Positions 39,822 through 64,000 are shown, numbered from the stretch's first letter. The stretch: DNA of 64,000 bases from an uncultured Chloroflexia bacterium (GCA_963713795.1 CAVQNC010000010.1:346375-410374), one strand, 5' to 3'. Numbers and translations are program-made. The notes: generated by a model not told the origin, from the sequence alone.

Positions 39822-40930
39822 GTGCTAGCGACCCTTCTCTCGGCCACGTTGAACGGCCTGGACGGCTGCCTCATCAGGGTCGAGGTCGACGTGGCTCCCG
39901 GCCTGCCCGGCTTCACGATCGTCGGGCTCGCCGACACCGCCCTGCAGGAAGCCAGGGAACGCGTACGAGGCGCCATCCGGAACAGCGGCTACGAGTACCC
40001 GCCCCGCCGGATCACGGTCAATCTGGCCCCGGCCGAGCTTCGCAAGAGCGGGGCTTCGCTGGATCTCGCCATAGCCCTCGGGATCCTCGTGGGGTCCGAG
40101 CAGGTAGCCGCGATCGGCCGTTGGGCCGTCCTGGGCGAGCTCTCGCTGGGCGGCGAACTGCGCACGGTTCCCGGGCTGCTGCCGATGGTCGCGGCTCTCG
40201 CTCACCGGCGCGTGGGCCGCGTCGTCGTACCGCTCGATGGCCTTGCCGAGGCGAACCTCGCCGGCCGGATCGATGTCGCCGGTGCCGCCTCGCTGGCCGA
40301 AGCCGCGGCCCTGCTGCGCGAACGCCGCGGCCGGGCGCGCAACCTGCCGCCGCGGGTGGAACTCGCTGCCGGCGGCCCCGCTGAAGCCGGATCCTCGGGG
40401 GGCTACCAGGCGGGCGTCATCACTTGCGATCCCGGCCCGGACCTGGCCGAGGTCCGCGGCCAGATGGAGGCCAGGCGGGCCATGGAAGTCGCCCTCTCGG
40501 GAGGGCATTGCATGGTGATGATCGGCCCACCTGGTTCCGGCAAGACGCTCCTGGCCAGAACGGTCCCCGGCATGCTGCCTCCCCTCGACGACGAGGAAGC
40601 GCGACTCGCGACGATCATCGCGTCCGTCTCCGGCTCCGGGTCGCTGACGAAGCTGATCCGGACGCGGCCCTTCAGGTCGCCCCACCACACCATCTCGTAC
40701 GCGGCGATGGTCGGCGGGGGACCTCACCTCTCGCCGGGTGAAGTGACCCGCGCGCACAACGGCGTGCTATTCCTCGATGAGCTGCCCGAGTTCGATCGAA
40801 ACACGCTGGAGGCTCTGCGCCAGCCGCTCGAGGATGGCCAGGTTGCGATCTCCAGGGTCGGGCACTCGGCGGTCTTTCCTTCGCGGTTCCAGTTGATCGC
40901 GGCGATGAACCCGTGCCCGTGCAAGTGGGA
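39822..40930 (+). pseudogene. comM: comM/yifB-type Mg-chelatase-like AAA ATPase, 3'-truncated at the junction with an integrated element
   Basis: YifB N-terminal domain ([20 protein letters not shown]...), Walker [24 protein letters not shown], then AAMNPCPC, after which homology stops and the ORF runs into antisense recombinase sequence. Confidence 0.8.
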
Positions 40931-42483
40931 ACTACACCCGGGAAGCGGTAGGTCACCACGGCCCTGGCGGTCTTCCTGCCGTCTTCGCCGACCGCCGTGT
41001 GGACGATGATCCCGGAGAGGAGCCGGACGATCTCCTGACGCTCCTCGTCGGGTAGTCCCGCGTCCAGTCGCGCCCGGACTTCGGAAAGGAGGTCATGGAC
41101 CTCTTGGGGCACGATCTCGGCGCTGGGAGCCTGTAGCGCGCTCAGGCGGGCTTGCAGGGCGGTGCGCTCCCCACCGATGCGCTCGAGTTGCGACTCGAGT
41201 TCAGGATCGGTCAGGTGGCCCCGAATGCGCAGGTCGATGGCCGTTCGGCGCTCTGACTCCAAGGTCTCCAGGCGACGAGTCAGAGTCACCGCCTCGGCCT
41301 CGGCGATCGCGCCCTGCGCCTCCCGCTCGGCCTGGCCGTCGAGTTGGTCGATCACATCGCCAGGGTTGCGCAGCCAGGCCTCGATGTCGTCCCAGACGGC
41401 CGGCTCGATCCTGTCGGTCCGTACCGACACGCCGAGGCACTTGCCTGGGATCGGTCCACGCTCCACGAGCTGACCGCCGCAGCGATACCAGCCCACGTCC
41501 TTGCTCCAGGAGCCGACGTAGGTCAGGCCGCAGATGCCGCACTTCATCGCACCCTTGAGCAGGTAGTGGCGATCGGTGTTCTTGGCGCAGCGGCGGTTGC
41601 GGGCGAGGGCAGCCTGGGCCTCGTCCCATAGGGCAGGGGAGACCAGGCCTTCGATCGGGGCGACTATGACCTCGCGGTCACGCTTCTTGGTCCGCCGACC
41701 GTACGAGAGCTGGCCTTTGTAGATGGAGCCTCTGACCATGTTGCCGACTAGGCCGGCTCGCCAGATGCTCTGGGTCTTTCGGGCCCTCACGCCGGTCCCT
41801 TCGCGGGCGCACGCGGTCGGAACCCCGAGGTGGTTGAGTTCGGTTGCTGCGCGACGGCAACTCCAGCCCTCTAGAGCAATCCAGCCGTAGATGCGCCGAA
41901 CGACCTCGGCAGCAGACCAGTCGCCCCATATCGGCGTCTCGTCAGGCACGGGGCGGGCGGACCGCTTGATGCCCTCGATCCTGTAGCCGAGAGCTATCAC
42001 CCCGCCCGTGTAGCGGCCCTCCCTGGCCGCCGTGTCCATCCCGTCGGCGCTGCGTTCGTGGAACACTCGGTGCTCGTTCTGGGCGAGGGTGGCGAAGAGA
42101 TCGAACATGAACGGTGTGAGGCGGCCTTCTCGGAGGGTGACGACCGAGACGTTGAGCCCTTCGAGGCGGCGGCCCGTGGCGGCCGTGTCGGCGAGGTTGC
42201 GGCCGAGCCGGTCGAGCTTGTAGAGCCACAGCTCGTCAATCTGTCCCGCCTCGGCTGCGGCCAGGAGCGCTCTCCCGCCGGGTCGATCGGCAAGTGGCTT
42301 GGTACCGGATACGCCATCGTCGCTGAACCTGGCGACGACCTCGACGTCGGGCTCCCGTTCGAGCCAGCGGTCGAGCTGATCGGTTTGGGTCTTGATCGTC
42401 TCGCGCTCGCGTTGGTCGTCGGAGGAGACGCGCTCGTAGGTCGCGACCCGCCGGACTGCCGGAACCCTCGCCGCGAGCTTCAT
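40672..42483 (-). CDS. Large serine recombinase (resolvase catalytic domain, recombinase domain, zinc-ribbon, coiled coil)
   Basis: [14 protein letters not shown]...[13 protein letters not shown] (catalytic Ser region); zinc ribbon [10 protein letters not shown]...YRCGG; coiled coil. The recognisable C-terminus ends near AVVTYRF, and the last 90 codons or so are antisense to comM. Confidence 0.85.
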
Positions 42484-42811
42484 CGGGCACCTCCCTGACC
42501 GCGGTCGGGAAGCTGCCGTGGGAGGCCCAGCACCACCCGGAGGGCAGCCACCATCGTGTCGCGGTCCGGGTCGTATACACGCTCCAAATCGAGGGGTCGT
42601 GCAAGTCGACGACCAAGCCGGGTGGTCAGGCCGTTGGCTCGGGCGGGGCCCAATGGGCGCCGACGGCGGCCAACGGCTCCTTGTCCCTTGGTCGTCGCTC
42701 GCCGCTTAAGAAGCCCCGACACCGCCACAAGCCTCCGCAGACCAGTCGCGCCCGACGGCGCTAACGTGGAAAGCGTCTCAGCAGGTGTAAGGGCTTAGAT
42801 ATGGTGTACGT

Positions 42812-43807
42812 ATGCAGTACGAGCCTGACTCGATCATCACTGAGTTGATCGACGCCACCGAGACTGGCGCGCCCCGGGCGTGGCGTCAGGCGGGTCTGTA
42901 CCACTCGCCGGGCCGGGCCCTCGAACTCAAGGACGGCAGCATCAGCTGGAACTTCGAGGTCCACGATGCTGGCGGCTTCCTCGTGTTCAAGCCCACGTTT
43001 CTGGCTGAGTTTGTAGCTCTCGCCAGGTCGGGGGTGGCCGACGAGCAGATCCTGGTCTATGCTCAAAAGTGGGGTCTGCTTGAACTCTGTCCTGAGGGTC
43101 TGCCCCGAACCCACGATCAGAGTTCGGTGCCGGCGAGCCTGGCGCACGCAATGCAATTGACTCCAAGGGCCCGCTGCGACCGAGGGGGCGTGGGCGACCC
43201 CGAACGGCTCGAGTGGTGGCGTTACTGGGCGTCCCAGGCTGCCTCACTGGGCGCGATCGTGGCTGCCCTTCGGCTCGGCGACCGTGCCGATCCTCACGAC
43301 TGGGAGGCCATCCTCGCGCCGGGGCCGTGGGCCGTCGGATCGGACTGGGAGCGTGTCCTTTCGGGCGTCGCAGATCAGCTCGGCTACCTCCACGGCATCA
43401 AGACCATCAGCCAGCAACGCCAGCTGGCGGTCCGCGCGCTACAGCGCTGGATCACACTCGCGAACCTGCGCCCCGAGATCAAGTGGGCGAGCGGCATGAA
43501 GGTCAGGGTCGAGTTCCGACCGGCGAGCCTGTTCGGCGCCCTTGGGCTGCAGATCGTCTTTCTCTCAGCCGACATCGATGGCCTGGCCCTGTGCGACGGC
43601 TGCCACGCCATGATCGTGCCCGCCCGTCGCCCGGGCTTCCCCGCGCAGCGTGTCTACTGTGAGCATTGCCGCGCGGAAGGCGTGCCTCAACGTGAAGCCA
43701 GCCTCGCCCACTACCGCCGCCGCTCGGCCGAGCCTGCCTTCCGTCAAATGGAGGCAGACCGACAGCGTCGCCGTCGTGCCGACAAGCGAGCGACGGACCC
43801 CCGGTAG
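42812..43807 (+). CDS. Hypothetical protein with a C-terminal CxxC...CxxC zinc ribbon and basic tail
   Basis: CDGCHAMIV...YCEHCR; no family recognised; divergent from the recombinase gene. Confidence 0.45.
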   Translation: MQYEPDSIITELIDATETGAPRAWRQAGLYHSPGRALELKDGSISWNFEVHDAGGFLVFKPTFLAEFVALARSGVADEQILVYAQKWGLLELCPEGLPRTHDQSSVPASLAHAMQLTPRARCDRGGVGDPERLEWWRYWASQAASLGAIVAALRLGDRADPHDWEAILAPGPWAVGSDWERVLSGVADQLGYLHGIKTISQQRQLAVRALQRWITLANLRPEIKWASGMKVRVEFRPASLFGALGLQIVFLSADIDGLALCDGCHAMIVPARRPGFPAQRVYCEHCRAEGVPQREASLAHYRRRSAEPAFRQMEADRQRRRRADKRATDPR

Positions 43808-44266: not shown

Positions 44267-44989
44267 TTGCTACGATCGCGAACGATGGGCCTGAACAGTC
44301 TCGAGGTTGTCAGCGCGACTCTCGAGGCCCGCAGACCGGCCGAAGTTGAAAGGGTGGTCTCGCCCATGAGCCTCGCATCTGTTCGACTGGAGGCGGAGGG
44401 CTGCCAACGCTGCCCGCTTGAGCAGAGCCGCTGCAAGGTCGTCTTCGGGGGCGTGAACGGCTACCGCGGCATCCGGGCCGACTTGATGCTCGTGGGCGAG
44501 GGTCCCGGCGCGGAGGAAGACGCCCAAGGGCTCCCGTTCGTAGGGGCCGCCGGCAAGTCACTCGAGGCGTTGCTGGAGCAATCCGGGATGGACCGGAAGA
44601 CTGCCTACATCACCAACGTTGTCAAATGCCGTCCGATCACGCGCCAGGACGGGCAACCGCCGACCAACCGGGCGCCCGCTCCCAGAGAGATCGCGGCCTG
44701 CTGGGAGTATCTGCAGTCCCAGATCAGCCTGGTCCGCCCGCGCGTGATCGTCGCTCTGGGTGTAACCGCTGTCGTACGCCTTCTGGGCCCGGGATCTCAG
44801 GTTGGGACCAGCCGCGGCCCTGGGCACTTCCACGACCTGGTCCCGGTGGTTGCCACCTACCATCCATCGCCCTCCTCGCTCAACCGGCGAGCTGGCCGGC
44901 GCGAGAGGGTTGTCGAGGACCTCAGGCTGGCCAAGCGCCTCCTGGATACGCCTGAGGAAGCGCTGCCCCGGACCGTTGGCGGGATGTAG
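44267..44989 (+). CDS. Family-4 uracil-DNA glycosylase (Fe-S type)
   Basis: CQRCPL...LMLVGEGPGAEEDAQGLPFVGAAGKSL...ITNVVKCRP; the start may be an internal Met. Confidence 0.8.
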   Translation: MLRSRTMGLNSLEVVSATLEARRPAEVERVVSPMSLASVRLEAEGCQRCPLEQSRCKVVFGGVNGYRGIRADLMLVGEGPGAEEDAQGLPFVGAAGKSLEALLEQSGMDRKTAYITNVVKCRPITRQDGQPPTNRAPAPREIAACWEYLQSQISLVRPRVIVALGVTAVVRLLGPGSQVGTSRGPGHFHDLVPVVATYHPSPSSLNRRAGRRERVVEDLRLAKRLLDTPEEALPRTVGGM

Positions 44990-45249
44990 CGACGGTCGCC
45001 GCGGGACAGGCAGGTTCAACACGACGGCGGGCGTCAGGAGCGGTCGGGCGACCACCGGACTCGACGGTTCTCCTGGGGCCCGAGCGATTGCCCTTCTCGA
45101 TCAAGAAGGCGTAGAGGGCCTGGTCCCAGACCGACGGGTCTCCGCTGGTCAGGGCGGGGAGGGGTTGAGCGGTCATCGCGGGCGCCTTGTGTGCGAATTG
45201 GTCGTCGTTTTGACTCACTCACCCTGGCGGCAATAGCAACACCATCGAA

Positions 45250-46060
45250 ACGTCGTGGGCGGGAAAACACTCCGGAGTCCTACCGCCTCGAAGGTGGCGG
45301 CCGGCACGGTCCCGACGGCGGGTCGGGGTACAAAACCCGAGGTTCTCGACTGCAAGTGGGCATCGTCTGGGGCAGCGGAATGGCCGGTTCGGTTCGACCA
45401 TGGTCGTGTTCGCCTCCGGGTCGGGGATGGTGGTCCGGATCTTGCGCCGTCGGACGACGGCCGGCGAGGCCGCGCAGCGCCATGAGGCGGGCCACACGCT
45501 TTCGCCGACGCCCTCTCCTTCGCGGGCCAGGGCGGCGGTGATCCGCGGTGAGCCGTATGTGGCGCGACTCTTGGCGTGGATCTCGACGATCTTGGCCTCG
45601 AGCTTCGCGTCCTCGAGGGCACGAGGGCCCGGGTGGTGGTGATGCCAGCCATAGAAGGCGGAGCGAGAGACCTCCATCAGAGCGCAGGCAGATGCCACGT
45701 TGCGCTCTGCGACCTTCTCCGCCTCGATGAACGGGTAGACGCTCATCGGGTCTCGCGGGCGAAGAAAGCCGCTGCTCGCTTCAGGATGTCGCGCTCCTCG
45801 CGCAGGGTCCTGTTCTCGCGCCGCAGGCGGGCGAGCTCCTCGCGCTCGGCGCTTGTCAGACCTTCGCGGCGGCCGGCGTCGATCTCGGCCTGGGCGACCC
45901 AGCGGCGGACCGCGGTCTCGGACAGATCGAGGTCTTGGCCACCGCGCCGACCGAACGCTCGCCGCTGCGGCAGAGCTCGACGACCTGGGCCTTGTACTCG
46001 TCGGGGAACGACCGTCTCGGTCGTCGCTGCTGTTCCATGACCACCATGATGAACATCCTT
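45250..46060 (-). pseudogene. IS3-family insertion sequence remnant: orfA with an internal 1-nt deletion; orfB frameshifted and truncated before the DDE domain
   Basis: orfA RRSFPDEYKAQVVELCRSGERSVGAVAK|DLDLSETAVRRWV (frame break); slippery-site-like junction ...RASSGFLRPRDPMSVYPFIEAEKV...AFYGWHHH...TYGSPRITAAL, then further frame breaks and no rve domain. Confidence 0.75.
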
Positions 46061-46449
46061 TCCCGGCCTGTTCGGCCGATGTCAGATGTCCGTCAAAGCG
46101 GGGCAATGCCCGGCGAAGCAGGGGTCGAGCCCCCGCATTTCGGGCACGGGTACATGGTCAACTCGGTCTTTGACATGCGACCTCCTCCCGATCTTGTAGC
46201 TCAACCCAGACCCACCCCAGTCTAGCGGGGTCAAACCATCTAACTGAGCCCGTCTCGGTAGCCTCTCCACGCTCAAAGCACGTCGGTATGACCCGGATGA
46301 CTTCGGATCAGGTGATGTGTCGCTGTCACCATCACCCGATCGTGGCGGACTGCCGTGGCGACGAACTCGCGCTACAGTTGCTTGGACGCTAGGCGACTGT
46401 CAAACTCCCATTGCCTGGGCACTACCGCCGCTGGTGAGATGACCGCTGG

Positions 46450-47757
46450 TTGGCGCTTACGCCACATCGCCGATGGGGGAGCCAGCAGATGACGATCCAT
46501 TCTCGAGCCGCACGGGACATCGAGGGGTGCAGCATGGGTCTCTTAGGACGGCGCCGCAGGCCGTTCTCTCGGGCGGTCCGCTTGAGCTTGGCGGGTCTCC
46601 TGGTAGCCCTGGCCGTCACGGGCTGCTCGGGAAGCTCGACGATGGCGTCACCGACAGGCAGTGGGACTGCGATACCGCTGGCGACCCTGACCCCGACCCC
46701 GACCCCGACCCCGACGCCGACTCCCACCGCTTCGCCGAAACCCGCGCCCGGTTTCAGCGTTACCGGTTCCATGACCGCCAATCGCGAGGGGGCCACCGCG
46801 ACGCTGCTCTCCGACGACCGGGTGCTTGTCACAGGCGGGGAGGACATAACGAACTCGTTCGCACCTTTCGCTTCAGCTGAGCTATATGACCCCAAGACCG
46901 GCACCTTCAGCGCGACCGGCTCGATGAGCACCGTCCGTGTCAATCACACGGCCACGTTGCTATCCGACGGCCGAGTCCTCATCGCGGGCGGCCGCGTCAA
47001 GTTTGACGCGCCTGCGCCGCTCGCCTCAGCTGAGCTGTTTGACCCCAAGACCGGCACCTTCAGCGCCACCGGCTCGATGGTCGCGGGGCGCTCCGGCAGC
47101 ACCGCTACGCTGCTCTCAGACAGCCGCGTCCTCATCACGGGCGGCGGAGGGCTCTCCTCGGCCGAGCTGTACGATCCGACGACCGGCAAGTTCTCGTCAA
47201 CCGGCCCCATGAGTACCGTTCGCGACCTGGACACTGCGACTCGGCTCTCCGACGGTCGCGTCCTCGTCGCGGGTGGCGAGAGCCGTAGTCAGGAAGGGCT
47301 TGCGTCAGCCGAGCTCTATGATCCGTCGACCGGTAAGTTCGGTCCGACCGGGTCGATGACAGCCGGTCGCGAGCAGTACACGGCGACTCTGCTAGCCGAC
47401 GGCCGAGTCCTGATGGCGGGAGGCTTGGATTCGAAACGCAAGGTTCTCGCATCGACGCAGCTGTACAACCCGGCAACCGGCAAGTTCAGTCCGAGTGGCT
47501 CCATGGCCGGAGGCCGTTTCGGTGACACCGCCACACTGCTGCCCGACGGACGGGTCCTCGTCGCAGGCGGGCTGAAAGACACGACGACAGGTGTAGCAAT
47601 CGCCACTGCCGAGCTATATGACCCGACTTCCGGCACATTTAGCTCGATCGGACCAATGGCTGAAGCTCGTGTCGTACAGACGTCGACCCTGCTATCGGAC
47701 GGTCGAGTATTGATCGCGGGCGGCCGAACTACGTCAGCCGAGCTATATCAGTCGTAG
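46450..47757 (+). CDS. Kelch/beta-propeller repeat lipoprotein with a PT-rich linker
   Basis: Lipobox LAVTGCSGS; (PT)n linker; at least 8 repeats of TATLLSDGRVL(I/V)AGG...ASAELYDP.TG.F...GSM. Confidence 0.7.
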   Translation: MALTPHRRWGSQQMTIHSRAARDIEGCSMGLLGRRRRPFSRAVRLSLAGLLVALAVTGCSGSSTMASPTGSGTAIPLATLTPTPTPTPTPTPTASPKPAPGFSVTGSMTANREGATATLLSDDRVLVTGGEDITNSFAPFASAELYDPKTGTFSATGSMSTVRVNHTATLLSDGRVLIAGGRVKFDAPAPLASAELFDPKTGTFSATGSMVAGRSGSTATLLSDSRVLITGGGGLSSAELYDPTTGKFSSTGPMSTVRDLDTATRLSDGRVLVAGGESRSQEGLASAELYDPSTGKFGPTGSMTAGREQYTATLLADGRVLMAGGLDSKRKVLASTQLYNPATGKFSPSGSMAGGRFGDTATLLPDGRVLVAGGLKDTTTGVAIATAELYDPTSGTFSSIGPMAEARVVQTSTLLSDGRVLIAGGRTTSAELYQS

Positions 47758-47955: not shown

Positions 47956-48801
47956 TTGTCCTCGACGTCAAGGCCCGCCAAGAGAGCGGGCGCCTGGCGG
48001 ATGACGTCAGCAAGCAGCTGGCCGTCGAGATGGGGAGGGCACACCGCGATGATCATGGACCGGCTTCTGGGCCGGCGGCCCAAGGCCCCCAATCTCACGA
48101 AGAGATACGTTGGCGTCCGCCACAAACGCGGCTACGGGCAAGCGTTCATCGAGGAGGCAGGGCAGCGCCGCTCGCTGTCTCTGGTGGACGGGGATGGGGA
48201 GATCCGATGGGGGCCCGACTCGATCCCTGCGTGTACCAACCTTGCTGTGTCCATTCTTGGCGACGCCCTGGGAGAGCGAGCGGAGGCGCTGAAGGAGGTT
48301 GCCGCGGGCCAGCCTTTGGTGGAGGAGCTGTTCATCAGGAGGGTCATCAACAAGCTCCCGCCTGATCATGTCGGGAGGAAAAGAGGAGAGGATAGCTGGA
48401 CTCTCTCGTTGGAAGACGTTACGGCCTGGGCGGAGGCCGCGGCGCTGAAGCAGCGACTACCACGAGTCTCTCACGGCGACTTTGTGGGTAGCTGGGACTC
48501 CTCGGAGGAGATGCTCGAGAACATCCGGATCAACGAGGACGAGGCCCGACTGGAATCCACGATGCTGCGTGTCGAGACCGCGATGATGCGCAAGATCGTG
48601 GCTGACCGACCTTGCCGCACGTGCAGTGGAAGCGGAGCCGTTAGCGAGTGCCCTACTTGTCGTGGCAAGGGGACTATCTACGGTTCCGGACCAGACGGAA
48701 GGCCCGGAGGGGCCAGCTGCACGACGTGCGGTGGAACTGGCCGTAATCTAAGGGAGAGCGCGTCGTGCCCCAGCTGTTCAGGCACCGGATTGGCAGAGTA
48801 G
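47956..48801 (+). CDS. Hypothetical protein with a DnaJ-type CxxCxGxG zinc-finger cluster at the C-terminus
   Basis: CRTCSGSG...CPTCRGKG...CTTCGGTG...CPSCSGTG; the start is possibly the internal MIMDRLL. Confidence 0.45.
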   Translation: MSSTSRPAKRAGAWRMTSASSWPSRWGGHTAMIMDRLLGRRPKAPNLTKRYVGVRHKRGYGQAFIEEAGQRRSLSLVDGDGEIRWGPDSIPACTNLAVSILGDALGERAEALKEVAAGQPLVEELFIRRVINKLPPDHVGRKRGEDSWTLSLEDVTAWAEAAALKQRLPRVSHGDFVGSWDSSEEMLENIRINEDEARLESTMLRVETAMMRKIVADRPCRTCSGSGAVSECPTCRGKGTIYGSGPDGRPGGASCTTCGGTGRNLRESASCPSCSGTGLAE

Positions 48802-49033
48802 GTCACCGGCCGCGGCAATCGGTACGCGGTAACTGATCCGATGCAACTCTCGGCCAAGGGAGATTGGGGACGCTGTGACCACATCGCAGTGGACTCGCGA
48901 GTCCGGACCTCGCGCCTGCTAGGCTTGCTCTAGGCGGAGGCGTTACCGGGAAATCTGGGCACTCAGGCTCGGCGGTCAAGCGGAGCACGCGACGCGATCC
49001 GGGGACGCTCACACTCAGCGGGGAGAGGGAGCA

Positions 49034-50173
49034 ATGGACCCAGGCGGCGACGATGCCTTCACCGATCTCGGTGACTGGCTGGTCGAGGATGCTCAAGGGC
49101 TCGCGCCGTTAGCCCCAGGTGATGTCATCCACATCCTGCGGTCGGAGGAGCTGTGGGCCTTCGAGAGCACGTCCGGAGAGCTGCTCGGCTCGTACTCACG
49201 ACGCGCGAGCCGAGGGCCCTCACCACGAAATCACCTCGTAGCCTGCAACGTTTCGAATGGCAGCTACCTGCGCCTCGAGCACCTTTCGCCGGACATGAAC
49301 GAGACTCCAATCGCATCGCCATTCGACGAGGCGTCTTCATCCCCGGTTGAAGTCGATCCTCGGAAGCCGATCAGGGACTCTATTGAGGCGCGGACGATGG
49401 AAGGCGTTCTGCCGAATGAAGCTGCTGAGGCTCTTCGTCCGGTGTTAGCGCCGGCCGAGACGATCCGAGCCTCTTTTCCTGGTCCATCTGGCTCAGCTGT
49501 CGTAGTCTCGGATCGCCGCGTCTTCGTGTTCAAACGCCTCATTGGCAAGGGGGCAATGCGCGCCTGGCCACTTGCTTCGGTAATCGACGTGTCGGTGCGC
49601 CCGAACCCGCCCCACAGCATTGCCCTCCTGGTGGTCGAGATTGTCGGCGACGCAAAGAAGCCGGAGATACTGAGCCCCAACGTGATGGCAATCCCCGGCC
49701 GCGGCTACGAACCAATGCTTGCGGCGCTTCGTCAGGCTGTCGTCGAAGGTCAGTCGCTGGCAGCGAGTCGGGGTGTCGAGATCCATGGTGGGGAGCTTTC
49801 GGCCCTCACCCACGGCTGGACGGTGACCGCGGTCACGCGCACGTACGAAGGCAGCGAAGCCGGCAGGCGCATGCTGGCGGCAGAGACCCAGGTTCTTGGG
49901 TTGCACGGCTACGTCCCTGCGAGTCAGAGTCAGGACGGAGGGCACATCCACGCGGGCCGCATTCTGATGACGGGAGGTCTGAGCGTGCTGGCCGGCAGCG
50001 CCGGCACGCGCTCCAAAGGGTCGATCATTGTGAGCTTTCACCGACCGCCGGCAGTTGCTGGGCCGATCGACATACCAGATCAAATTCGGAAGCTGGCCGA
50101 CCTCCGCGACGCGGGGGTCCTCACGTCGGCCGAGTTCGATGCCAAGAAGCGAGAACTCCTGAGGCGGATGTAG
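49034..50173 (+). CDS. Hypothetical protein with a C-terminal SHOCT domain
   Basis: C-terminus IRKLADLRDAGVLTSAEFDAKKRELL matches the SHOCT consensus. Confidence 0.45.
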   Translation: MDPGGDDAFTDLGDWLVEDAQGLAPLAPGDVIHILRSEELWAFESTSGELLGSYSRRASRGPSPRNHLVACNVSNGSYLRLEHLSPDMNETPIASPFDEASSSPVEVDPRKPIRDSIEARTMEGVLPNEAAEALRPVLAPAETIRASFPGPSGSAVVVSDRRVFVFKRLIGKGAMRAWPLASVIDVSVRPNPPHSIALLVVEIVGDAKKPEILSPNVMAIPGRGYEPMLAALRQAVVEGQSLAASRGVEIHGGELSALTHGWTVTAVTRTYEGSEAGRRMLAAETQVLGLHGYVPASQSQDGGHIHAGRILMTGGLSVLAGSAGTRSKGSIIVSFHRPPAVAGPIDIPDQIRKLADLRDAGVLTSAEFDAKKRELLRRM

Positions 50174-53583: not shown

Positions 53584-53989
53584 CGAAGCTGTCGATCTGG
53601 CTGGCGCATTATCCGACTCGGTCGGCTCAGATGATGTCGTGGCAGCTTCTCGACAGCCTGCGACGGCCAGTAACCGATTCGATCGTCGGCCCGGGCCATA
53701 TCCGTACACGGCAGCAAGTGGCCAGCAACGTGGACGATCGATGACTTCCTGTTCGATGAGCCGCTCGCGATCTGCTTGCGGAGGACGGCGGACATTTCGA
53801 TAGCCTGACAGAGGCATTGCTTACCGGATATCGGGCAAGACCTGGGTCGCCAACCATGCACATGTCCTACGCCCGAAGCCGGCAAATGAAGCTTGCGTTC
53901 CTGTGTCGCGTTCTGCGAGCAACTCATGACGTAACGCCGTTCGTAACCGGAACAACTCGGGGCAAGCTCATCGCAAGCTGGAGCCGAGA

Positions 53990-54770: not shown

Positions 54771-54774
54771 AGTG

Positions 54775-55504
54775 CCGTTCCGCCGTTCCCAGAGGGTCAG
54801 ATTGAGGCTCTCGCCGTTGTGCTGGGGGAGTGCGGGACAGGAACGGACATCACGCATGTGTTGAATGATCGCGGTCTCCCGGACAACTTCGGCGAAACGA
54901 CGAAGTGGAGGCGTTTGTACGCGATCTTCCTTGAGAGCCCAGCGCAAGGATCAGTCGGCGAATCGCGTACTCGACTTCGTTCGAGCCTTCCTCTTGCCCG
55001 TCCGTTTCGTTGGTCGCGGTGAGGAATTCGAGGACCCGGCGACAGGAGCTGAATAGGATCCTATCGTTCTCGGGCACTTGAGTACGGTAAGTGACGTGCG
55101 AGTTCAGGCGCACTGAAGCAGTGCCGACGCTGGACGAGGCCGAGGTGCGGGCGAGGACCATCCAGGCCAAGTTCAAAGGGCGGCGGATCCACCCCGAAGT
55201 CCTCAAGTATTGCCGCGCCGAGTTGATGCGGGACGATTACTTCCACGCGGTATTCGAGGCTTCGAAGGGGCTTGCGCAGCGAATCCGAGAGATGTCCGGC
55301 GCCACCGGGGACGGCGCCGCGCTTGTGGAACAGGTGTTTTCGCTCGAACAGCCGCTGCTTGCATTCAACTCCCTGCGGACCGATACGGAGAAGTCCGAGC
55401 ACAAAGGCTTCGCCGCTCTTCTGAAGGGGTGTTTCGGAGCGGTGCGCAACCCATTGGCTCATCAGCCAAAGCTCCTGTGGCAAGGGAGAGGACGACGCCG
55501 CTGA
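54775..55504 (+). pseudogene. TIGR02391/Ymh-family protein (common Type I R-M accessory), frameshifted
   Basis: ...KWRRLYAIFLESPAQ | RKDQSANRVLDFVRAFLLPVRFV... | EAEVRARTIQAKFKGRRIHPEVLKYCRAELMRDDYFHAVFEASK...RNPLAHQPK, the family hallmarks, split over three frames. Confidence 0.6.
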
Positions 55505-55551
55505 CTACCTGACTACTTGGATCTCGCTCCTGCATCGGAAGCTGGACGACT

Positions 55552-58500
55552 GTGTGTCCACTCGAACCGGGCGGGGCTGACGTGAGCCAGTTCGCCTTCC
55601 TCCAGCGCGAATGGCCGGCTGTGTTCGAGGCCGCGGCCAGGGCCGAGGCGGCGGTGCATCCGGACCCGCGGGCGGCCTGCTTCTACGCCCGGCGGGCGCT
55701 CGAGCTGGCGGTGGCGTGGGCATACAAGCACGACGCCGCGCTGCGGCTGCCCTACCAGGACAACCTCTCGGCGCTGATCCACGAGCCGACCTTCAAGCTG
55801 GCTGCGGGCGAGGCGGTCTTCAACAAGGCGCGCGTGATCAACACGCTCGGCAATCGCGCCGTCCACAGCCACAACGCGATCCCGCGGACGACGCGCTGGC
55901 GGCGGTGCGCGAGCTGTTCCATGTCTGCTACTGGCTCGCCCGCACCTACGCGCGCGAGGCGCGACCGGCGCCGGACCTGGCCTTCGACCCCGGCGCTCTG
56001 CCGAGGACGCGCTCGTCCCGAAGCAGACCGCCGAGCAGCTGCAGCAGCTCGAGGCCGCGCTGCGCGAGCGCGACGAGAAGCTCGCCGTCGCTGCTGGCCG
56101 ACGAGACCGCGCTCGACGAGGAGCTGAAGCGCCTGCGCGCCAGGTGGCCGAGGCCAAGAAGGCCGCGGCGGCGCAGCCCGACACGCACGACTATTCGAAG
56201 CCGAGACGCGCGACTACTTCATCGATCTGCTGCTCAAGGAAGCGGGCTGGCCGCTGCGACCAGGCGCGCGATCGGGAGTTCGAAGTCGCCGGCATGCCCA
56301 ACACCCAGGAGCAAGGGCTTCGTCGACTACGTGCTCTGGGGCGACGACGGCAAGCCGCTCGGCCTGGTCGAAGCCAAGCGCACGCGGCGCGACCCGCGCG
56401 TGGGCCAGCAGCAGGCCAAGCTCTACGCCGACTGCCTGGAGCGCCAGTTCGGCCAGCGCCCGGTGATCTTCTACTCCAACGGCTACGAGCACTGGATCTG
56501 GGACGACACGAGCTATCCGCCGCGCCGGGTCCAGGGCTTCTACAAGAAGGCCGAGCTGGAGCTGCTGATCCAGCGCCGAGCCAGCCGCAAGCCCCTCGCC
56601 TCGGCCGAGATCAACGGCGCGATCGTCGAGCGCTACTACCAGACGCGCGGCCATCCGCCGCATCGCCGAGGCCTTCGAGCGCGACCACGACCGCAAGGCG
56701 CTGCTGGTCATGGCCACCGGCGCGGGCAAGACCCGCACGGTCATCGCGCTGTGCGACCTGCTGATGCGCTGCAACTGGGCCAAGCGCGTGCTGTTCCTCG
56801 CGGACCGCGTCGCGCTGGTCAAGCAGGCGGTGAACGCCTTCAAGCGCCACCTGCCGGACTGCGTCGCCGGTGAACCTGGTCACCGAGAAGCGACGCCGAG
56901 GGCCGCGTCTTCGTCTCCACCTATCCGACGATGATGGGGCTGATCGACGAGACGGCGGACGGCCAGCGGCGCTTCGGCGCCGGCCATTTCGATCTCGTGA
57001 TCATCGACGAGGCGCACCGCTCGGTCTTCCAGAAGTACCGCGCCATCTTCGACTACTTCGACTCGCTGCTGGTCGGCCTGACGGCGACGCCCAAGGACGA
57101 GATCGACCGCAACACCTACAGCCTGTTCGACCTCGAAAACGGCGTGCCGACCGACGCCTACTCGCTCGAAGAGGCGGTGCGCGACGGCTTCCTCGTGCCG
57201 CCGAAGGCCGTGTCGGTGCCGCTCAAGTTCCAGCGCGAGGGCATCAGGTACGACGAGCTGTCCGAGGACGAGAAGGACCAGTGGGACGCGCTCGAGTGGG
57301 ACGAGGAGGGCGACGGTCCCGGACCGCGTCGAGGCCGCGGCGCGTCAACAAGTGGCTGTTCAACAAGGACACGGTGGACAAGGTGCTGGCGCACCTGATG
57401 ACCCGCGGCCTGACGGTCGCCGGCGGCGACCGCCTGGGCAAGACGATCATCTTCGCCAAGAACCAGGACCACGCCGAGTTCATCGCCGAGCGCTTCAACG
57501 CCAACTACCCGCACTACCAGCGGCGAGTTCGCCCGCGTCATCACCTTCAAGACCGAGTACGCCCAGAGCCTGATCGACGACTTCTCGAACAAGGAGCAAG
57601 GCGCCGCACATCGCCATCTCGGTGGACATGCTCGACACCGGCATCGACATCCCCGAGGTCGTGAACCTGGTCTTCTTCAAGCTGGTGCGCTCGAAGACCA
57701 AGTTCTGGCAGATGCTCGGCCGCGGCACGCGCCTCTGCCCGGACCTGTTCGGGCCGGGCAAGGACAAGGAGTTGCTTCCAGCTCTTCGACTACTGCCGGA
57801 ACCTGGAGTTCTTCAGCCAGAACCCGGAGACGACCGAGGGCGCGGCTGGGCGAGTCGCTGGGCAAGCGGCTGTTCGTGACGCGGCTGGAGCTGGTCGAGG
57901 AGCTGGACAAGCGCGTGGGCGCCGGTCGCCGGCCCGGCGGCCGCGGCGACAGCCATGGCGCCCTACGGCGACCCGACGACCGAGGCGGAGGTGCGCGGCG
58001 CGCTCGGCCGAGTCGCTGCATCGCGAAGTGGCCGCGATGAACCTGGACAACTTCGTCGTCCGGCCGCAGCGGCGGCTCGTCGAGAAGTACGCCAAGCCCG
58101 AGGCCTGGGCGTCGTTGTCGCGCGAGGCGCTCGCGCGAGCTGGCGCACGAGGTCGCCGGCCTGCCGGCGGAGCTGGACGCGGAGGCCGAAGAGGCCAAGC
58201 GGTTCGACCTGCTGATCCTCAACCTGCAGCTGGCGCTGCTCCGATCCGAGCCCGGCTTCGAGCGACTGCGCGATCAGGTCAAGGCCATCGCCGGCCTGCT
58301 GGAGGAGAAGTCCGCCATCCCGATGGTCCGGGCCCAGATGGCGCTGATCCAGGACGTCCAGACCGACGAGTGGTGGGTCAGGACGTCACCGTCCCGATGC
58401 TGGAGCTGGTTCGCCGCCGCCTGCGCGATCTGGCCAAGCTGATCGAGAAGCAGAAGCGCCGCGTCGTCTTCGCCGACTTCGAGGACGAGATGGGCGCCGA

Positions 58501-59011
58501 GGAGCGGGTCGATCTGCCCGGCCTCGCCGCCGGCTGGGACTTCGAGAAGTTCCGCGCCAAGGCGCAGGTCTTCCTGCGCGAGCACCAGGATCACGTCGCC
58601 ATCCGGAAGCTGCGGATGAACAAGCCGCTGACGGCCGGCGACCTGGCCGAACTGGAGCGCATGCTGGTGGAGAGCGGCGTCGGCGGGCCCGATCAGATCG
58701 ACCGCGCCAAGCAGGAGTCGCACGGCCTCGGCCTGTTCGTCCGTTCGCTGGTCGGCCTGGATCGAGGCGCCGCCAAGGAGGCCCTGGCCGGGTTCCTGTC
58801 GGGCAAGACGCTGGGCGCCAACCAGATCGAGTTCGTCAACCTGATCGTCGACCACCTGACCGAGCACGGCGTCATGCCCGCCGCGCTGCTCTACGAGTCG
58901 CCCTTCACCGACATCACGCCGCGCGGCCCGGACGGCCTCTTCGCCTCGGCCGAGGTGGACGAGCTGATCGCCACGCTTCTGCGGGTCAGGGCCACGGCGG
59001 TCGCGGCCTGA
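55552..59011 (+). pseudogene. hsdR: Type I restriction enzyme R subunit HsdR, disrupted by many frameshifts
   Basis: N-terminal domain FAFLQREWPAVFEAA...; KGFVDYVLWGDDGKPLGLVEAKR; helicase motifs [44 protein letters not shown]; these are distributed over all three forward frames. Confidence 0.8.
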
Positions 59012-59218: not shown

Positions 59219-60028
59219 ATGGGCCTGAGTCATTCTCACGGGGTGGTGACCATCGAGCAGGGGAAGGTCGTCAACGCGACCCATGGGAAGAACCTGGTTA
59301 CTCGCAAGGAGTGGCAGAAGGTAGACCGGATCCCCGTCGCAGGGATCAGGAACGTGTTGGTGCAGAGCCGGGATCGGCTGACGTTTCAGTTCGAGGCGAT
59401 GGACGTGCGAGGCAAGGCAGTCCTGAGCATCGAAGGCTGCACGTCCAAGCCAGAGCTCGACGCCTTCTTCCGTGAGCTTGTCTCTGCCAACCCCAACATC
59501 GTCGTCGAGCTCGCCCATCCCAGCCACGGTCTGACCGATCTCGAACACGAGGCTGCCGAGAAGGAAGCCAAGCGCGCCATCAAGTTCAACGAGGAAGAAG
59601 AGAAGCGACGCAAGGCCGCGTTGGGTCTCCGCCCCGAGGTCAAGGTCAAGATCTACGACAACCACAAGGACTACGAGCACGACGCAAAGAAGATGTCCAA
59701 GGACGGCTGGATGCCGGAAGGTCAGACAGGAGGCCGGGGCGGAGCGTCCCTTGCCGGAACCGGCGCCAAGATCCTCCCCAACTGGCTGGGGCTCGGGGCC
59801 ATCACGGGTTTCAGCCGCAAAGGCGACAAGATCACGGTCACGTGGGTCAAGCAACCGCCGGGCTTTGTCCCAAAGGATTACCTCGATGTGCCCGAGGTAC
59901 CCGCGCCCAGGGTGTTTCCCCACGAACCTATTTCCAGGCACGACTCCTCCAGCCCGTTCAAGCGCGGTCAGGAGTTCTTGGTCGGCTGGGCTCTGCCGGT
60001 AGCGACCCGGACCGTGCCGCGCCTATAA
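59219..60028 (+). CDS. Hypothetical Lys-rich protein
   Basis: 269-aa ORF, compositionally distinct from the flanks (lower GC, K-rich); no motif recognised. Confidence 0.45.
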   Translation: MGLSHSHGVVTIEQGKVVNATHGKNLVTRKEWQKVDRIPVAGIRNVLVQSRDRLTFQFEAMDVRGKAVLSIEGCTSKPELDAFFRELVSANPNIVVELAHPSHGLTDLEHEAAEKEAKRAIKFNEEEEKRRKAALGLRPEVKVKIYDNHKDYEHDAKKMSKDGWMPEGQTGGRGGASLAGTGAKILPNWLGLGAITGFSRKGDKITVTWVKQPPGFVPKDYLDVPEVPAPRVFPHEPISRHDSSSPFKRGQEFLVGWALPVATRTVPRL

Positions 60029-60078
60029 CTCCGGAGCCCACGGCACCTCCGCCCGACCAGTCTGCCGGCGCGCCGGAA

Positions 60079-60186
60079 ATGAGCATTGGGGACAAGCTCC
60101 GCCAACTGGCGGCGCTGCGTGACGACGGGATCATCTCGGCCGAGGAGTTCGAGGCGAAGAAGGCGGAGCTGCTTCGCGCCTTCTAG
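60079..60186 (+). CDS. Stand-alone SHOCT-domain mini-protein (35 aa)
   Basis: MSIGDKLRQLAALRDDGIISAEEFEAKKAELLRAF is essentially a complete SHOCT consensus. Confidence 0.4.
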   Translation: MSIGDKLRQLAALRDDGIISAEEFEAKKAELLRAF

Positions 60187-60338: not shown

Positions 60339-60653
60339 TCAATTCCTGCGAGTTGGGAGACCCCGATTGGTCCTCGATTGCTCCGGCTCAGCTGCGACTC
60401 TGCCGGCCTCCCAAGGGTACGCCCTCCCACATTCTGGACAGTACGGGCTCGGCTGCGCCATAGCAGCGCCAAGCACGAGAACACCCTCGGCGATGTAGTC
60501 GCCTTGAATGGGTTTTCCGCAGCCTTCACAGGCGCTTATCGCTGGCTGCCCGCATTGAGGACAGAATGGCTTGTTGAATTGGGGTCGACTGCCGGCTCGG
60601 TCATTGATGACGTGGCCTGACCGACAGACGACGGCGGTGTCGTAATGTCCCAT
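60339..60653 (-). CDS. Zinc-ribbon protein (two CxxC pairs plus extra Cys/His)
   Basis: CRSGH...CPQCGQ...CEGCGK...CPECGR. Confidence 0.5.
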   Translation of the reverse strand: MGHYDTAVVCRSGHVINDRAGSRPQFNKPFCPQCGQPAISACEGCGKPIQGDYIAEGVLVLGAAMAQPSPYCPECGRAYPWEAGRVAAEPEQSRTNRGLPTRRN

Positions 60654-60722
60654 GACGTTGCCAGCATGCGAGTGGGATACGGCGCATCGGCAGCGGCGTC
60701 ACGAGGGAGGCCAGACAACAGG

Positions 60723-61529
60723 ATGGCGAAGGAGTCTGCGGCAGCCTCTGATGGTGAGGCTCAGGATGTCGCGGCCGAGGCGACGAGCCCGGTGGGGGGT
60801 ACAGACGAAGCCGAGCTACGGGAGTGGCATCGGCGGAATTGTCAGATGTTCGATGCCTTTGGCGCCCAGGTAGCACAGGTGATCAAGGTCGCCCTGCGAG
60901 AAGTTGGCATCCAATTCCAGGACGTGTTCAGCCGCACCAAAGGTGAAGAGAGCTTTCTTGAGAAGGCCAAACACTACGACGACCCTCGGGCGGAGGTTCA
61001 GGACCTCGTTGGATTGCGCGTGATCACCTATTTCAGCGGGGAGATCGACCGCGTTGAGCAGAGGCTAAACGCCCTCTTTGCGGTCGACTCGTCGCTCACC
61101 GCAGACAAGGGTAGTGATCTGGGGCCGGATCGGCTCGGATACCGTGCGCGCCATTTCGTCTGCAGAATTGGACCAGATCGAGAGCAACTCGCCGACTGGA
61201 AGTCGTTCAAGGGGATCCGGTTCGAAGTGCAAGTCACCACTGTCTTGGGGCATGCGTGGTCAGAATTCGAACACGACCGAGGCTACAAATATCGAGGCCA
61301 GCTTCCGCCAGAGCTCGAACGTCGACTTAATCTGGCCGCAGGGCTACTCGAGGTGGCGGACCGTGAACTCGATGCGCTTGCTAAGGAGATCTCAAGGTAT
61401 ACAGCGGAAGTCGCGGAGACGATCGGTCGCCGAGATGGGGCGCTGGCGAAGATCGACTTGAATGCCATCTCTTTGCGTGAGCTCCTGCTGGAACGGCTCC
61501 CTGCCTCGGTCGCGTCCGGCGCGATTTAG
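60723..61529 (+). CDS. RelA/SpoT-domain (small alarmone synthetase/toxSAS-like) nucleotidyltransferase
   Basis: DLVGLRVITYF, YRARHFVCR, EVQVTTVLGHAWSEFEHD, the RSD synthetase motifs with catalytic D/G/R and E.Q residues present; the likely start is MAKESAAA (the track start at 60645 would overlap the divergent gene). Confidence 0.7.
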   Translation: MAKESAAASDGEAQDVAAEATSPVGGTDEAELREWHRRNCQMFDAFGAQVAQVIKVALREVGIQFQDVFSRTKGEESFLEKAKHYDDPRAEVQDLVGLRVITYFSGEIDRVEQRLNALFAVDSSLTADKGSDLGPDRLGYRARHFVCRIGPDREQLADWKSFKGIRFEVQVTTVLGHAWSEFEHDRGYKYRGQLPPELERRLNLAAGLLEVADRELDALAKEISRYTAEVAETIGRRDGALAKIDLNAISLRELLLERLPASVASGAI

Positions 61530-61606
61530 CCGGATTCCTCGAGCCCGGACTCCTCGGAGTTGGCCTGTCCGAACTCCGGGCGTTTGGCGTCCGGACGCTC
61601 GACCAG

Positions 61607-61849
61607 GTGGCCGACCTCATCCCGGCTTCCTACGACAAGCTTCACTCGACGATCATCTCGGGAAACACTCTAATCGGCGTCGTGCGCGATCTGATGATGA
61701 TTGCCGACGCTGATCGGTACTTCGCGGTGGCCTGGAGAAACTCATGGCATGGTTGGCTGCCGGACAACCTAGTTCTTCTGCGCAAGTTTCATATCGATAC
61801 GACTGGGCTCCTGAAGCGGTATGGCTTGTTCATCGACAGCGAAACGTAA
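61607..61849 (+). CDS. Small hypothetical ORF downstream of the RelA/SpoT gene
   Basis: 80-aa ORF with unusually low GC; no motif recognised. Confidence 0.25.
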   Translation: MADLIPASYDKLHSTIISGNTLIGVVRDLMMIADADRYFAVAWRNSWHGWLPDNLVLLRKFHIDTTGLLKRYGLFIDSET

Positions 61850-62399
61850 CCGTCTGGACAAGGCGAGAGAGGTCGACCTTCGGTGTCGATGCCAGGCGCT
61901 TCGATTTGCCTGACTCTGGGGACCTGTCACGCACGAAGGGTGCTTGGTTTCGACCTTCAGGGCCGAGGTCCGCCTGCTGAGGTCCTGTTTGTTAAGTAGG
62001 TGCAACTCGGACCTCTTGGGCCCCAGCCCAGCCATGGGGCGATCTCCATGACGCGACCCGGTCAAGATGCCGCTCGTCGAAGTTCATCGCGGCTGAACCA
62101 AGAGGTAGACCGCACGATCATGGCGTCGGATATGGATGCCATTCCGCTCCGGGGTCCGCAGCCGGCCCTCGACCGCAGCACTAGCCGGGCCCGTGCCAGG
62201 TACCCAAGCTCGCCGATACCGTACCCGCCGGATTTGGGCGACTCCGTGACCCTGCGCCAGCACGTCGCATCACCAGCCGCCCAACGGCACGCCCTTCGTT
62301 TCAGCCTCTTAGAAGGGGCAACGCCGATTGGGGACACCACCCATACTGGTAGCGACACACTCCTGACTCGGGAAGTGAAGAGGCGGACGGGAGGACGTC

Positions 62400-62882
62400 G
62401 TGGCTCGAAGGACACCCGCGGAGTTAGTGGAGGCTCGAAAGGCTGCGGCGGCAGCACGAGCCGAGGAAGCGAGAGCCCAGGCTGAGGCGGAAGATAAAGC
62501 AGAGCGCGAGCTCAGGGCCTACAACGAGCGGCTGCGAACGAGTCGAGAGAAGCACCGGCAGCTTGTCAGCGCGGCCGACGGGATATACGACGAGATCGAC
62601 AAGCTCAGTCGGAAGTGGCCGACCGTTCCAGTAACCGAGCGGATGGTCGCCAGAACGAACAAGGTGCTAACCGAGACCAGGGCACTGTTCGCGGACGAGC
62701 CGGACATGTTCATCGATGGTCTCGACGACATCGTGTCCGCGGGCAATCCACCGGAAACACGCGATGTGGTGCTGATCCTGCGCGAAGCCAGGGATGCATT
62801 GACCCGGTACGAAGCTAAGTACGACGCGGATTGGGCCGAGATGGCCGAGCACGACGACGACGAGGACGACGAGGACGATTAG
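62400..62882 (+). CDS. Hypothetical coiled-coil protein with an acidic tail
   Basis: Ala/Glu/Arg-rich N-terminal helix, DDDEDDEDD terminus; stop abuts the next start. Confidence 0.4.
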   Translation: MARRTPAELVEARKAAAAARAEEARAQAEAEDKAERELRAYNERLRTSREKHRQLVSAADGIYDEIDKLSRKWPTVPVTERMVARTNKVLTETRALFADEPDMFIDGLDDIVSAGNPPETRDVVLILREARDALTRYEAKYDADWAEMAEHDDDEDDEDD

Positions 62883-63860
62883 TTGTCCGCCTCGCCAGCG
62901 CACCTCCCTCTACCGGCTGGGTTTGGCCTCCCGCTGAGCCAGGCCGAAGCCGACTTTGTCATCCCGGATCTTGCGTGCGACATTCCGGTTTGCATTGACC
63001 CCTTCTTGCTCTACAAGAGTCGGGACGAGGGGCTGCGCACGCTGCATGACCAGCTCCTGGCCGTCTTCCGCCACGGCTTCTCGCTCTACGAAGCAGGCGA
63101 TCGGAAGAGTCTCAACCGTCTGATCGACTTCCCGGAGGTGAATGCAATTGGCTTCGGCTACACGATCGGTGGCATCGGTGGCAGCGGACTTGGCTGGCAC
63201 CTTAATCAGCTCGTAGTCGATCTGCTCGAGTCAAGCGAAGAGGTCCGGACAAGGGGCCTCAGACATGTCGAAGAGCTACAACTCCTCTCGGTCGGGGTTG
63301 GCCCCGATCGGGTGAGCGACATCGCCGCTGGAGTGCTGAAGATCTCGCTCGTCGACTACACGCAGCGGCAAGCGGCGCTCTGGCACATTCCGATCACAGC
63401 CGGGGTCCCGCTAAACCACTACCTGGACCTCGAGGACATGGAGTGGCGCGACGGGTACTTCGACCTGCCCGTCAATCCGTTAAGCGGTAAAGCCTTGCTC
63501 CTCGTCCCTCGCCGGATCGTCCGGCTCCTGCCCTGGATCAACTACCAGGACTTCTACGGCAACGAGGCCAAGCTCCTCCTGCCGCCGCAGCCGCGGCTTC
63601 CTCGCTACCCAGGCATGAGCGCTGTCAAGCGCTACGAGATCGCCAAGACGGAACTCGTGCAGAAGGTGCGGCAGAGACCTGCCGTCTTTGAGCAGTACGT
63701 GGGCCGAAAAGAGCATGAGGCGTGGAAGGCGGAACCTTTGCTGCCGGACACCCAGGCGGAAGAGGAGCTACGCGCGACCGGCGCGGACCTGCGAAAACAA
63801 GCTCAAGGCTCTTCCAACCGGCGTCGCCGCAGCGGCGGACTACCAGCGACTCGTCTATGA
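62883..63860 (+). CDS. Hypothetical protein, probably continuing in another frame past 63800 to the window edge
   Basis: 325-aa ORF; downstream sequence continues coding-like in the +1 frame (YQRLVYEILNFLFEPELTGGDLEVSTYMGTERRDIIYWNE...). Confidence 0.4.
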   Translation: MSASPAHLPLPAGFGLPLSQAEADFVIPDLACDIPVCIDPFLLYKSRDEGLRTLHDQLLAVFRHGFSLYEAGDRKSLNRLIDFPEVNAIGFGYTIGGIGGSGLGWHLNQLVVDLLESSEEVRTRGLRHVEELQLLSVGVGPDRVSDIAAGVLKISLVDYTQRQAALWHIPITAGVPLNHYLDLEDMEWRDGYFDLPVNPLSGKALLLVPRRIVRLLPWINYQDFYGNEAKLLLPPQPRLPRYPGMSAVKRYEIAKTELVQKVRQRPAVFEQYVGRKEHEAWKAEPLLPDTQAEEELRATGADLRKQAQGSSNRRRRSGGLPATRL

Positions 63861-64000
63861 GATCCTCAACTTCCTCTTTGAACCCGAGCTGACCGGTGGG
63901 GACCTTGAGGTCAGCACCTACATGGGCACGGAGCGCCGCGACATCATCTACTGGAACGAGGCCGAGCACTCGTTCTGGAATACGTACGCGACACCTACAA

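Follow-up and report, generated by a model that had tools for sequence, protein, structure and literature searches.

Results

A large serine recombinase gene reads across an interrupted comM gene

The stretch of DNA described here (the window: 64,000 nucleotides, with positions counted from its first letter) comes from a Limnocylindria-like Chloroflexota bacterium and contains a chromosomal comM (yifB) gene that breaks off at the edge of a genomic island, at a point crossed on the opposite strand by the open reading frame (ORF) of a large serine recombinase (LSR). The host-derived 5' part of comM occupies positions 39822 to 40913 on the plus strand and comprises 364 codons, as delimited by Pfam matches, by relatives and by locus L048, a second assembly of the same host (L-numbers designate the related loci compared). 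It belongs to a plus-strand ORF (39822-41009) that runs past the junction through island DNA and ends in unrelated residues. The fragment carries Pfam ChlI and positions 1-163 of the 207 of Mg_chelatase, lacks Mg_chelatase_C, and is 77-86% identical to the N-terminal 367 amino acids of the intact ComM proteins of relatives. No 3' part of comM, dprA or topA was found in the window, in agreement with a preliminary description of this DNA, made from the sequence alone, which had placed the rest of comM and the second attachment (att) site outside it. The base composition shifts at the junction as well. The GC content of the window is about 69%, and up to about 41 kb it is filled by ORFs rich in third-position GC; from before to after the junction, GC falls from 0.690 to 0.652 and third-position GC from about 0.85 to about 0.74, which fits the patches of lower GC reported earlier for the island.

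About three quarters of the 120 nearest ComM clusters, which come mostly from metagenome-assembled genomes (MAGs) of Limnocylindrales/Chloroflexota, are 502-541 amino acids long and include Mg_chelatase_C (PF13335); a natural truncation of ComM was rejected on this ground. About one quarter are cut at the same motif as the window comM. A scan with the ComM C-terminus found comM uninterrupted in 14 of the 15 Chloroflexota genome loci returned and, separately, in L002; in most relatives ComM is intact, with a length of 520-530 amino acids, and dprA and topA come after it. In this intact relative the genes follow in the order NfeD, Band_7, response regulator/AAA_31, comM, dprA, Big_5, topA and a xerC-like gene, and the window shares this order only up to comM, within which it diverges (the match extends to 40922). 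YifB homologues thus do not naturally end at this position, and the region downstream is not syntenic in relatives, the two observations that the preliminary description had named as able to overturn an insertion; the comparison with a comM-intact relative that it had proposed places the break inside comM.

The second assembly of the host, L048, differs from the window at only 2 of about 10,250 positions (30673-40918), with a single gap in 10.2 kb. The first mismatch beyond lies at 40919, from where identity is 62-90%, and the LSR of L048 is 80% identical to that of the window. As the host side is identical and the island side has diverged, one and the same site in the comM of a single host is occupied by two different island variants. 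The contig of L048 stops 120 bp upstream of its LSR, as if the assembly had broken in variable island DNA (the comparison covered window positions 30673-42603).

The LSR ORF (42483-40672, minus strand) is intact, encodes 603 amino acids (P0001), crosses the junction from the island side and continues into antisense comM. Pfam domains and homologues delimit its native part, residues 1 to about 522 (40916-42483, minus strand), which is followed by a read-through extension of about 80 codons antisense to comM (40672-40913, minus strand) that replaces the native tail. The preliminary description had recognised that an LSR gene on the other strand crosses the junction; it had placed the recognisable C-terminus near VVTYRF, and this has to be corrected, as the LSR's own sequence runs on to ...PTCTG. 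The protein matches Resolvase (8.1e-28, residues 14-158), Recombinase (4.2e-15) and Zn_ribbon_recom (5.5e-09) in Pfam, and its zinc ribbon has the Cys residues. In an alignment of 41 homologues, with a mean column identity of 65% over the whole LSR, the catalytic motif YERVSSDDQ falls in columns that are invariant or nearly so. Long helices at 353-448 in the AlphaFold2 model of the homologue P0011 correspond to the coiled-coil insertion of the family. We found 577 homologues, and in 7 metagenome loci members of this LSR family adjoin antisense comM. Relative to the LSRs of solved structure the protein is very distant (best E-value 2e-07, catalytic domain only). With these domains and the att sites described below, the enzyme belongs among the LSRs and is predicted to catalyse attP x attB recombination through 2-bp staggered cuts.

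Immediately upstream of the LSR, an 82-amino-acid ORF (42480-42728, minus strand), the stop codon of which overlaps the LSR start, appears in tblastn searches as a conserved small partner: it is 61% identical over 54 amino acids to a 77-amino-acid ORF at the same position in L001 (9771-10004). It has no Pfam match, and could be a regulator or a directionality factor.

Attachment sites and the predicted point of strand exchange

Relatives of the LSR occur in three contexts. In the attL context, shared by the window, L022, L024-L029 and L048, the LSR adjoins antisense comM; in the attP context (L001, L023, L049-L053) it continues into ...NYTTVRRVIELPVGRQKVAVG and a stop codon, followed by a replication gene; in the attR context (L015, L054, L055) the DNA encoding this tail abuts the 3' part of comM, followed by dprA. 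The placement of the att sites rests on comparing such loci, mostly across different genomes, the exceptions being the pairs L022/L023 and window/L048. In the orientation of the LSR gene, attP reads GTGTAGTT-N14-CA-N14-AACTACAC, a palindromic site of roughly 50 bp. The window attL (40890-40940) consists of a B arm derived from comM up to 40913, the dinucleotide TG at 40914-40915, and the island P arm cccgtgcaagtgggAACTACAC. The corresponding attB lies inside the comM codons for AAMNP|CPCG and is split after codon 364.

The four-way comparison of attB, attL, attR and attP that uses sites from relatives, which carries out the alignment of junctions suggested in the preliminary description, leads to this TG. 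Every attL compared keeps comM up to ...ATGAACCCG TG (comM orientation), and the base right after it is specific to the element: A in L022 and L028, where it creates an in-frame TGA, and G in L025 and L026. Every attR compared shows the reverse order, with element DNA as far as TG and comM beyond, the 3' part of comM having the sequence GHAGEGDGRCRC.... Because the base after TG can differ from comM and attR mirrors attL, the exchange point is, on this alignment, the central dinucleotide, TG in the sense of comM, at window positions 40914-40915. The alternative of a crossover where the 9-bp identity TGCCCGTGC ends (near 40922-40925) was rejected, as other attL sites differ from comM right after TG. 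The preliminary description, which had ComM homology lost at about 40925, was thus right that the gene is cut there and about 10 bp too far to the right for the crossover; homology seemed to end near 40925 because the island arm re-encodes CPC (40914-40922) and so mimics comM.

The inner arms of attP co-vary between lineages as inverted repeats (CTTGCA/TGCAAG, CTTCAC/GTGAAG, CGCAC/GTGCAG), so that the site has the form expected for a serine integrase, an imperfect inverted repeat around a central dinucleotide. L022 (attL) and L023 (attP) are 99.9% identical over 4014 bp and diverge at the junction; they represent one related element in integrated and unintegrated state, and are direct evidence that this family has moved recently. 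The unintegrated form was thus seen for the relative L023 and not for the window island.

Some further features of these sites were noted. The P' arm of attP and attR, on the tail side, falls into two classes (L001, L049 and L052 against L023, L053 and L054). One is palindromic to the other arm (TCCsTGmAr...), and the other copies the comM side (CGGGTTCA...), so that attP and attB can be identical over as many as 17 bp, which is unusually long for a serine integrase. At L021 (5899-7124), an LSR 83% identical to that of the window ends in an attL-like junction with only about 15 nt of comM-like DNA (gcagccatgaaccta TG) before unrelated sequence, and no ComM match was found in the 1.2 kb beyond it; this locus is either a pseudo-attB or one where comM was deleted after insertion. 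At L056 (9114-10672; P0345), comM consists of two adjacent ORFs of 296 and 223 amino acids with no inserted DNA, and P0345 was rejected as an attR locus, being a frameshifted comM without insertion. The frameshift may be genuine, or it may be an indel error of L056, a MAG assembly that resembles L001 and L002 in its accession, and it calls for caution about frameshifts in the window.

attP lies within the LSR reading frame and separates a conserved tail

The attP site is located within the 3' end of the LSR reading frame, its central CA falling in the codons for Gly-Ile, 26 codons before the native stop (in L001). The unintegrated LSR ends in a nearly invariant tail, NYTTVRRVIELPVGR (...NYTTVRRVIELPVGRQKVAVG). 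Among the 120 closest LSR clusters, 26 have this native tail, and at most positions of its 15-residue core at least 23 of these 26 proteins agree. A further 87 of the 120 clusters carry tails of 11-231 residues after YRFP that are antisense-host read-through, and which arbitrary tail follows YRFP depends on the host comM. Because attP sits inside the LSR ORF, the antisense-comM extension is a by-product that replaces the conserved native tail, and the free and integrated forms of the LSR differ at the C-terminus. In the literature searched, no description of a serine integrase with attP in its own ORF was found; the search was partial and is not proof of novelty.

The stop codon of the LSR and the start of the next gene overlap (ATGA) in each of the five attP loci. 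This gene is related to replication and of non-homologous types (AAA_25, D5-type primase-helicase, Prim-Pol); at the attR of L015 and L054 an ORF of 223-225 amino acids stands in its place.

Among seven DNA copies, the tail-encoding region shows 74 synonymous and 33 non-synonymous codon differences, and its base differences number 30, 28 and 88 at codon positions 1, 2 and 3. Such third-position, mostly synonymous variation suggests selection on the peptide rather than on the DNA. The tail could instead have been kept for a reason at the DNA level, for example because it belongs to an extended attP or controls the replication gene downstream, so that its loss from the protein would be without consequence. 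We regard this alternative as rather unlikely and yet as one to be taken seriously: the outer attP motif is formed by the two opening codons of the tail (AAC TAC), and the far end of the tail takes in the ribosome-binding region and the start codon of the gene that follows. A DNA-level role sits poorly, however, with the excess of third-position and synonymous differences, with a 15-residue core that stays unchanged whichever of four unrelated types the downstream gene belongs to, and with a tail that reaches +59 from the centre of the site, beyond a usual 50-bp attP. In an AlphaFold2 model of a homologue with the native tail, a strand is predicted at low confidence at residues 526-535, after a disordered linker encoded by the attP core. 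Since the extreme C-terminus of phiC31 integrase is reported to contact its directionality factor (preprint 10.1101/2025.05.02.651858), a role for the LSR tail is not far-fetched.

A possible switch set by integration

Comparison of the sequences shows that recombination between attP and attB split comM after codon 364 and took away the part encoding Mg_chelatase_C. Upon integration, as relatives show, the tail and the replication gene come to lie at the opposite island end, beside the 3' part of comM, and the LSR body reads into antisense comM, for about 80 codons in the window. Integration would change the C-terminus of the LSR and might thereby affect the enzyme. It would also deprive the replication gene of the LSR promoter and of translational coupling, and only the circular form would then be expected to express replication. 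As long as the island is present, ComM would not function and ComM-dependent transformation would be lost; precise excision would restore ComM. On these grounds attP within the LSR frame could act as a switch of integration state: the free element would make full-length LSR, with a structured and conserved tail, and a co-translated replication gene product, the integrated element would have its tail swapped for a meaningless one that depends on the host, and replication silenced, and excision would rebuild both. We put this forward as a tentative model, somewhat more likely to be wrong than right. If it holds, the tail would serve to adjust the activity or directionality of the LSR, and the copy-number programme of the element would be set by recombination itself.

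Cargo and state of the island

Downstream of the LSR the island carries genes of the cargo type listed in the preliminary description (a uracil-DNA glycosylase, an IS3 remnant, a Type I restriction-modification (R-M) locus and a toxSAS-like gene), for which Pfam returned UDG, HTH_21, hsdM and hsdR pieces, and RelA_SpoT, respectively. All cargo genes are on the plus strand unless stated otherwise. A 331-amino-acid ORF (42812-43807) had no match in Pfam, NCBIfam, PADLOC or PHROGs, and is followed by the uracil-DNA glycosylase superfamily gene (44267-44989; UDG 1.9e-33). On the minus strand, 45036-45176 is a tyrosine recombinase remnant limited to the first 47 codons, 83% identical in tblastn to residues 1-47 of the 311-residue Phage_integrase proteins of L001 and L049; in the relatives L001 and L049-L053, a Phage_integrase gene of about 311 amino acids lies 2-4 kb upstream of the LSR. 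Beside the remnant is an IS3-type transposase fragment (45219-46106, minus strand) with a Pfam match to HTH_21 only (1.1e-08). Then follow a Kelch-repeat beta-propeller protein (46450-47757; Kelch_4 7.9e-40 and related families) and two ORFs (47956-50173) of 281 amino acids, with a weak match to the DnaJ-type CXXCXGXG zinc finger below the Pfam cut-off, and of 379 amino acids (49034-50173), ending in SHOCT.

The Type I R-M locus is fragmented. Its hsdM (51991-53744) is split over three reading frames, with HsdM_N in one and N6_Mtase in the two others (PADLOC MTase_I 1.3e-72), and its hsdR (55552-59011) is spread over several, the DUF4145, HSDR_N, ResIII/SWI2_SNF2 and EcoEI_R_C pieces lying in different frames. 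Between them is a HEPN-like Hypoth_Ymh protein (55091-55504; PF09509 6.5e-37, PADLOC PD-Lambda-3_B 3.9e-49), and no hsdS was recognised in Pfam scans of the island ORFs. Further on, a DUF2321 zinc-ribbon gene (60339-60653, minus strand; 4e-24) is divergent to a gene resembling small alarmone synthetases (60645-61529; RelA_SpoT 6.3e-13, PADLOC PDC-S33 3.5e-10), and may be an antitoxin-like partner of the latter. A candidate defence gene pair, PDC-M36B-like and PDC-M36A-like (62400-63860; PADLOC 9.4e-12 and 6.5e-42), lies at the window end. NCBIfam and PADLOC gave no assignment for 42812-43807, 50493-51701 and 59219-60028. The last of these is a 269-amino-acid ORF followed in another frame by an ORF ending in SHOCT (59842-60186); together (59219-60186) they look like one frameshift-broken gene, which resembles the intact SHOCT protein at 49034-50173. 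From the truncated tyrosine recombinase, the insertion sequence fragment and the fragmented Type I R-M locus, we infer that the island is partly decayed, the LSR being still intact.

Discussion

The split gene, the LSR at the junction and the att forms of relatives bear out the proposal of the preliminary description that an LSR integrated a genomic island into comM/yifB, and on the strength of these comparisons it is highly probable that a mobile element of more than 23 kb was put into the chromosomal comM by its own LSR.

Several points weigh against this account or parts of it. The attR of the window island lies beyond the window, so that relatives provide the basis for inferring how large the island is, whether it has the tail and the replication gene and whether it can excise, and apart from L022/L023 and window/L048 the att sites were aligned across different genomes. 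The att sites and the crossover were placed by sequence comparison only, and recombination of attP with attB by the LSR is a prediction. The copies of the unintegrated type are on large contigs (301 kb and 64 kb): these elements may be plasmids, or may be kept in place by the accompanying tyrosine recombinase, rather than being excised circles. For the tail, the pLDDT of the predicted strand is only 50-66, against a model mean of 76.8, and because excision must be done by a tail-less enzyme, the tail is not essential for every reaction. Finally, the fragmented cargo genes could be assembly indels, as the frameshifted comM of the MAG locus L056 illustrates; real decay seems the more likely explanation, since window and L048 differ by one gap in 10.2 kb.

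The island might be an integrated prophage with the LSR as its integrase. Many characterised LSRs are phage integrases, and the unintegrated-type LSR P0088 is present on 12 contigs, as expected of an abundant free replicon. Against this, Pfam scans of the island ORFs within the window returned no capsid, terminase, portal or tail domain, and none of 10 proteins of the window and L049 matched PHROGs. A scan of IMG/VR with the LSR gave only distant matches (about 31-33% identity, in the resolvase domain), and hence no evidence of viral origin. The recognisable modules of the window island and its relatives are recombination, replication (AAA_25, primase-helicase, Prim-Pol), ParB-methylase and defence. 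We therefore consider a prophage improbable and, because phage structural genes were absent from these scans and such modules are present, refer to an integrative element of unassigned class.

It is far less probable that a tyrosine recombinase placed the island, with the LSR as a passenger at its edge. The Phage_integrase genes close to the LSR in L001 and L049-L053 and the remnant at 45036-45176 would agree with such a scenario, but only 47 codons of that gene are left in the window, and the junction marks the centre of an LSR-type palindromic site located within the ORF of the LSR. In addition, LSRs down to about 54% identity in the 120-protein list carry tails of the comM-antisense type, the related loci inspected as DNA abut the same comM motif, and tyrosine integrases as a rule depend on a longer core of identity and in most cases reconstitute their target gene. 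An assembly artefact, such as a chimeric MAG join, is hardly credible even though the source is probably a MAG, L056 of similar accession has a frameshifted comM and L048 breaks 120 bp upstream of its LSR, since L048, with its identical host side, and 7 metagenome loci of other projects show this junction in independent assemblies, matching attR and attP forms exist, and about one quarter of close ComM clusters end at the same motif. A Tn7-like transposon targeting comM (AbaR type) was rejected, Pfam scans of the island ORFs having found no TnsABC-type domains and the junction being an LSR att site with no duplication.

An LSR-mediated insertion into comM is of a known kind. In the survey of Durrant et al. 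(2022, PMC10083194), homologues of the Mg-chelatase/ATP-dependent protease (ComM) are reported as the target of 12.4% of the predicted site-specific LSRs, consistent with the earlier remark that comM/yifB is a classic insertion site for islands. The elements described there, and the yifB case of Mageeney et al. (2020, PMC7192596), likewise have the LSR at the island edge and a target inside the coding sequence of a ComM/YifB-type AAA+ ATPase, which is inactivated rather than restored. The window differs from them in its Limnocylindria-like Chloroflexota host, in an LSR very distant from those of solved structure, and in the position of attP in the LSR ORF, a feature that keyword searches within PMC10083194 and PMC7192596 did not find. 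The insertion as such is thus ordinary and attP within the LSR's own reading frame is the less ordinary part; the split-recombinase anatomy is a modest departure from an otherwise ordinary comM island.

Parallels exist in other elements. The Listeria phages A118 and phi10403S integrate into comK, and precise excision can restore this gene. As here, the enzyme is a serine integrase (A118 integrase, PMC3556126) and the target a competence gene. Those elements are true phages with attP outside the integrase ORF, whereas scans of the window island gave no phage genes and its attP is part of the ORF. In the Myxococcus phage Mx8, attP lies within the integrase gene (intP/intX) and integration alters the C-terminus of the integrase; Mx8 Int is a tyrosine recombinase, and a functional difference between its two forms is reported from experiment. 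The window enzyme is by contrast a serine recombinase, and its two forms may differ in function by analogy. Mycobacteriophages such as BPs use integration-dependent immunity, in which attP is inside a gene and the free and integrated products differ at the C-terminus (PMC8092301), so that the element can sense its integration state, as might be the case here; in BPs it is the repressor that is split and the integrase is of the tyrosine type (PMC8092301), whereas in the present element the serine recombinase itself is split and the replication gene uncoupled. As the enzyme at the junction is a serine recombinase and not a tyrosine integrase, the likeness to Mx8 and BPs is an analogy of mechanism and not membership in a class. 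In Tn916, which also uses a tyrosine recombinase, genes at one end are driven from the other end only after circularisation, and it is the conjugation genes that are coupled in this way. The coupling proposed here would differ in being translational, through the ATGA overlap, and in applying to a replication gene.

The island adds an example from the Chloroflexota to the most common target of LSRs and shows how frequently islands land in comM in this lineage, about one quarter of close ComM clusters being cut and one host having two island variants at one site. The LSR lengths of 520-745 amino acids found in databases for this family largely reflect antisense-host read-through and not real domain differences, which is a warning for annotation. 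This LSR family, remote from characterised ones and with defined attP and attB, could serve as an orthogonal tool for genome engineering. If the tail matters, it would provide a simple natural handle on how serine integrases control direction or activity.

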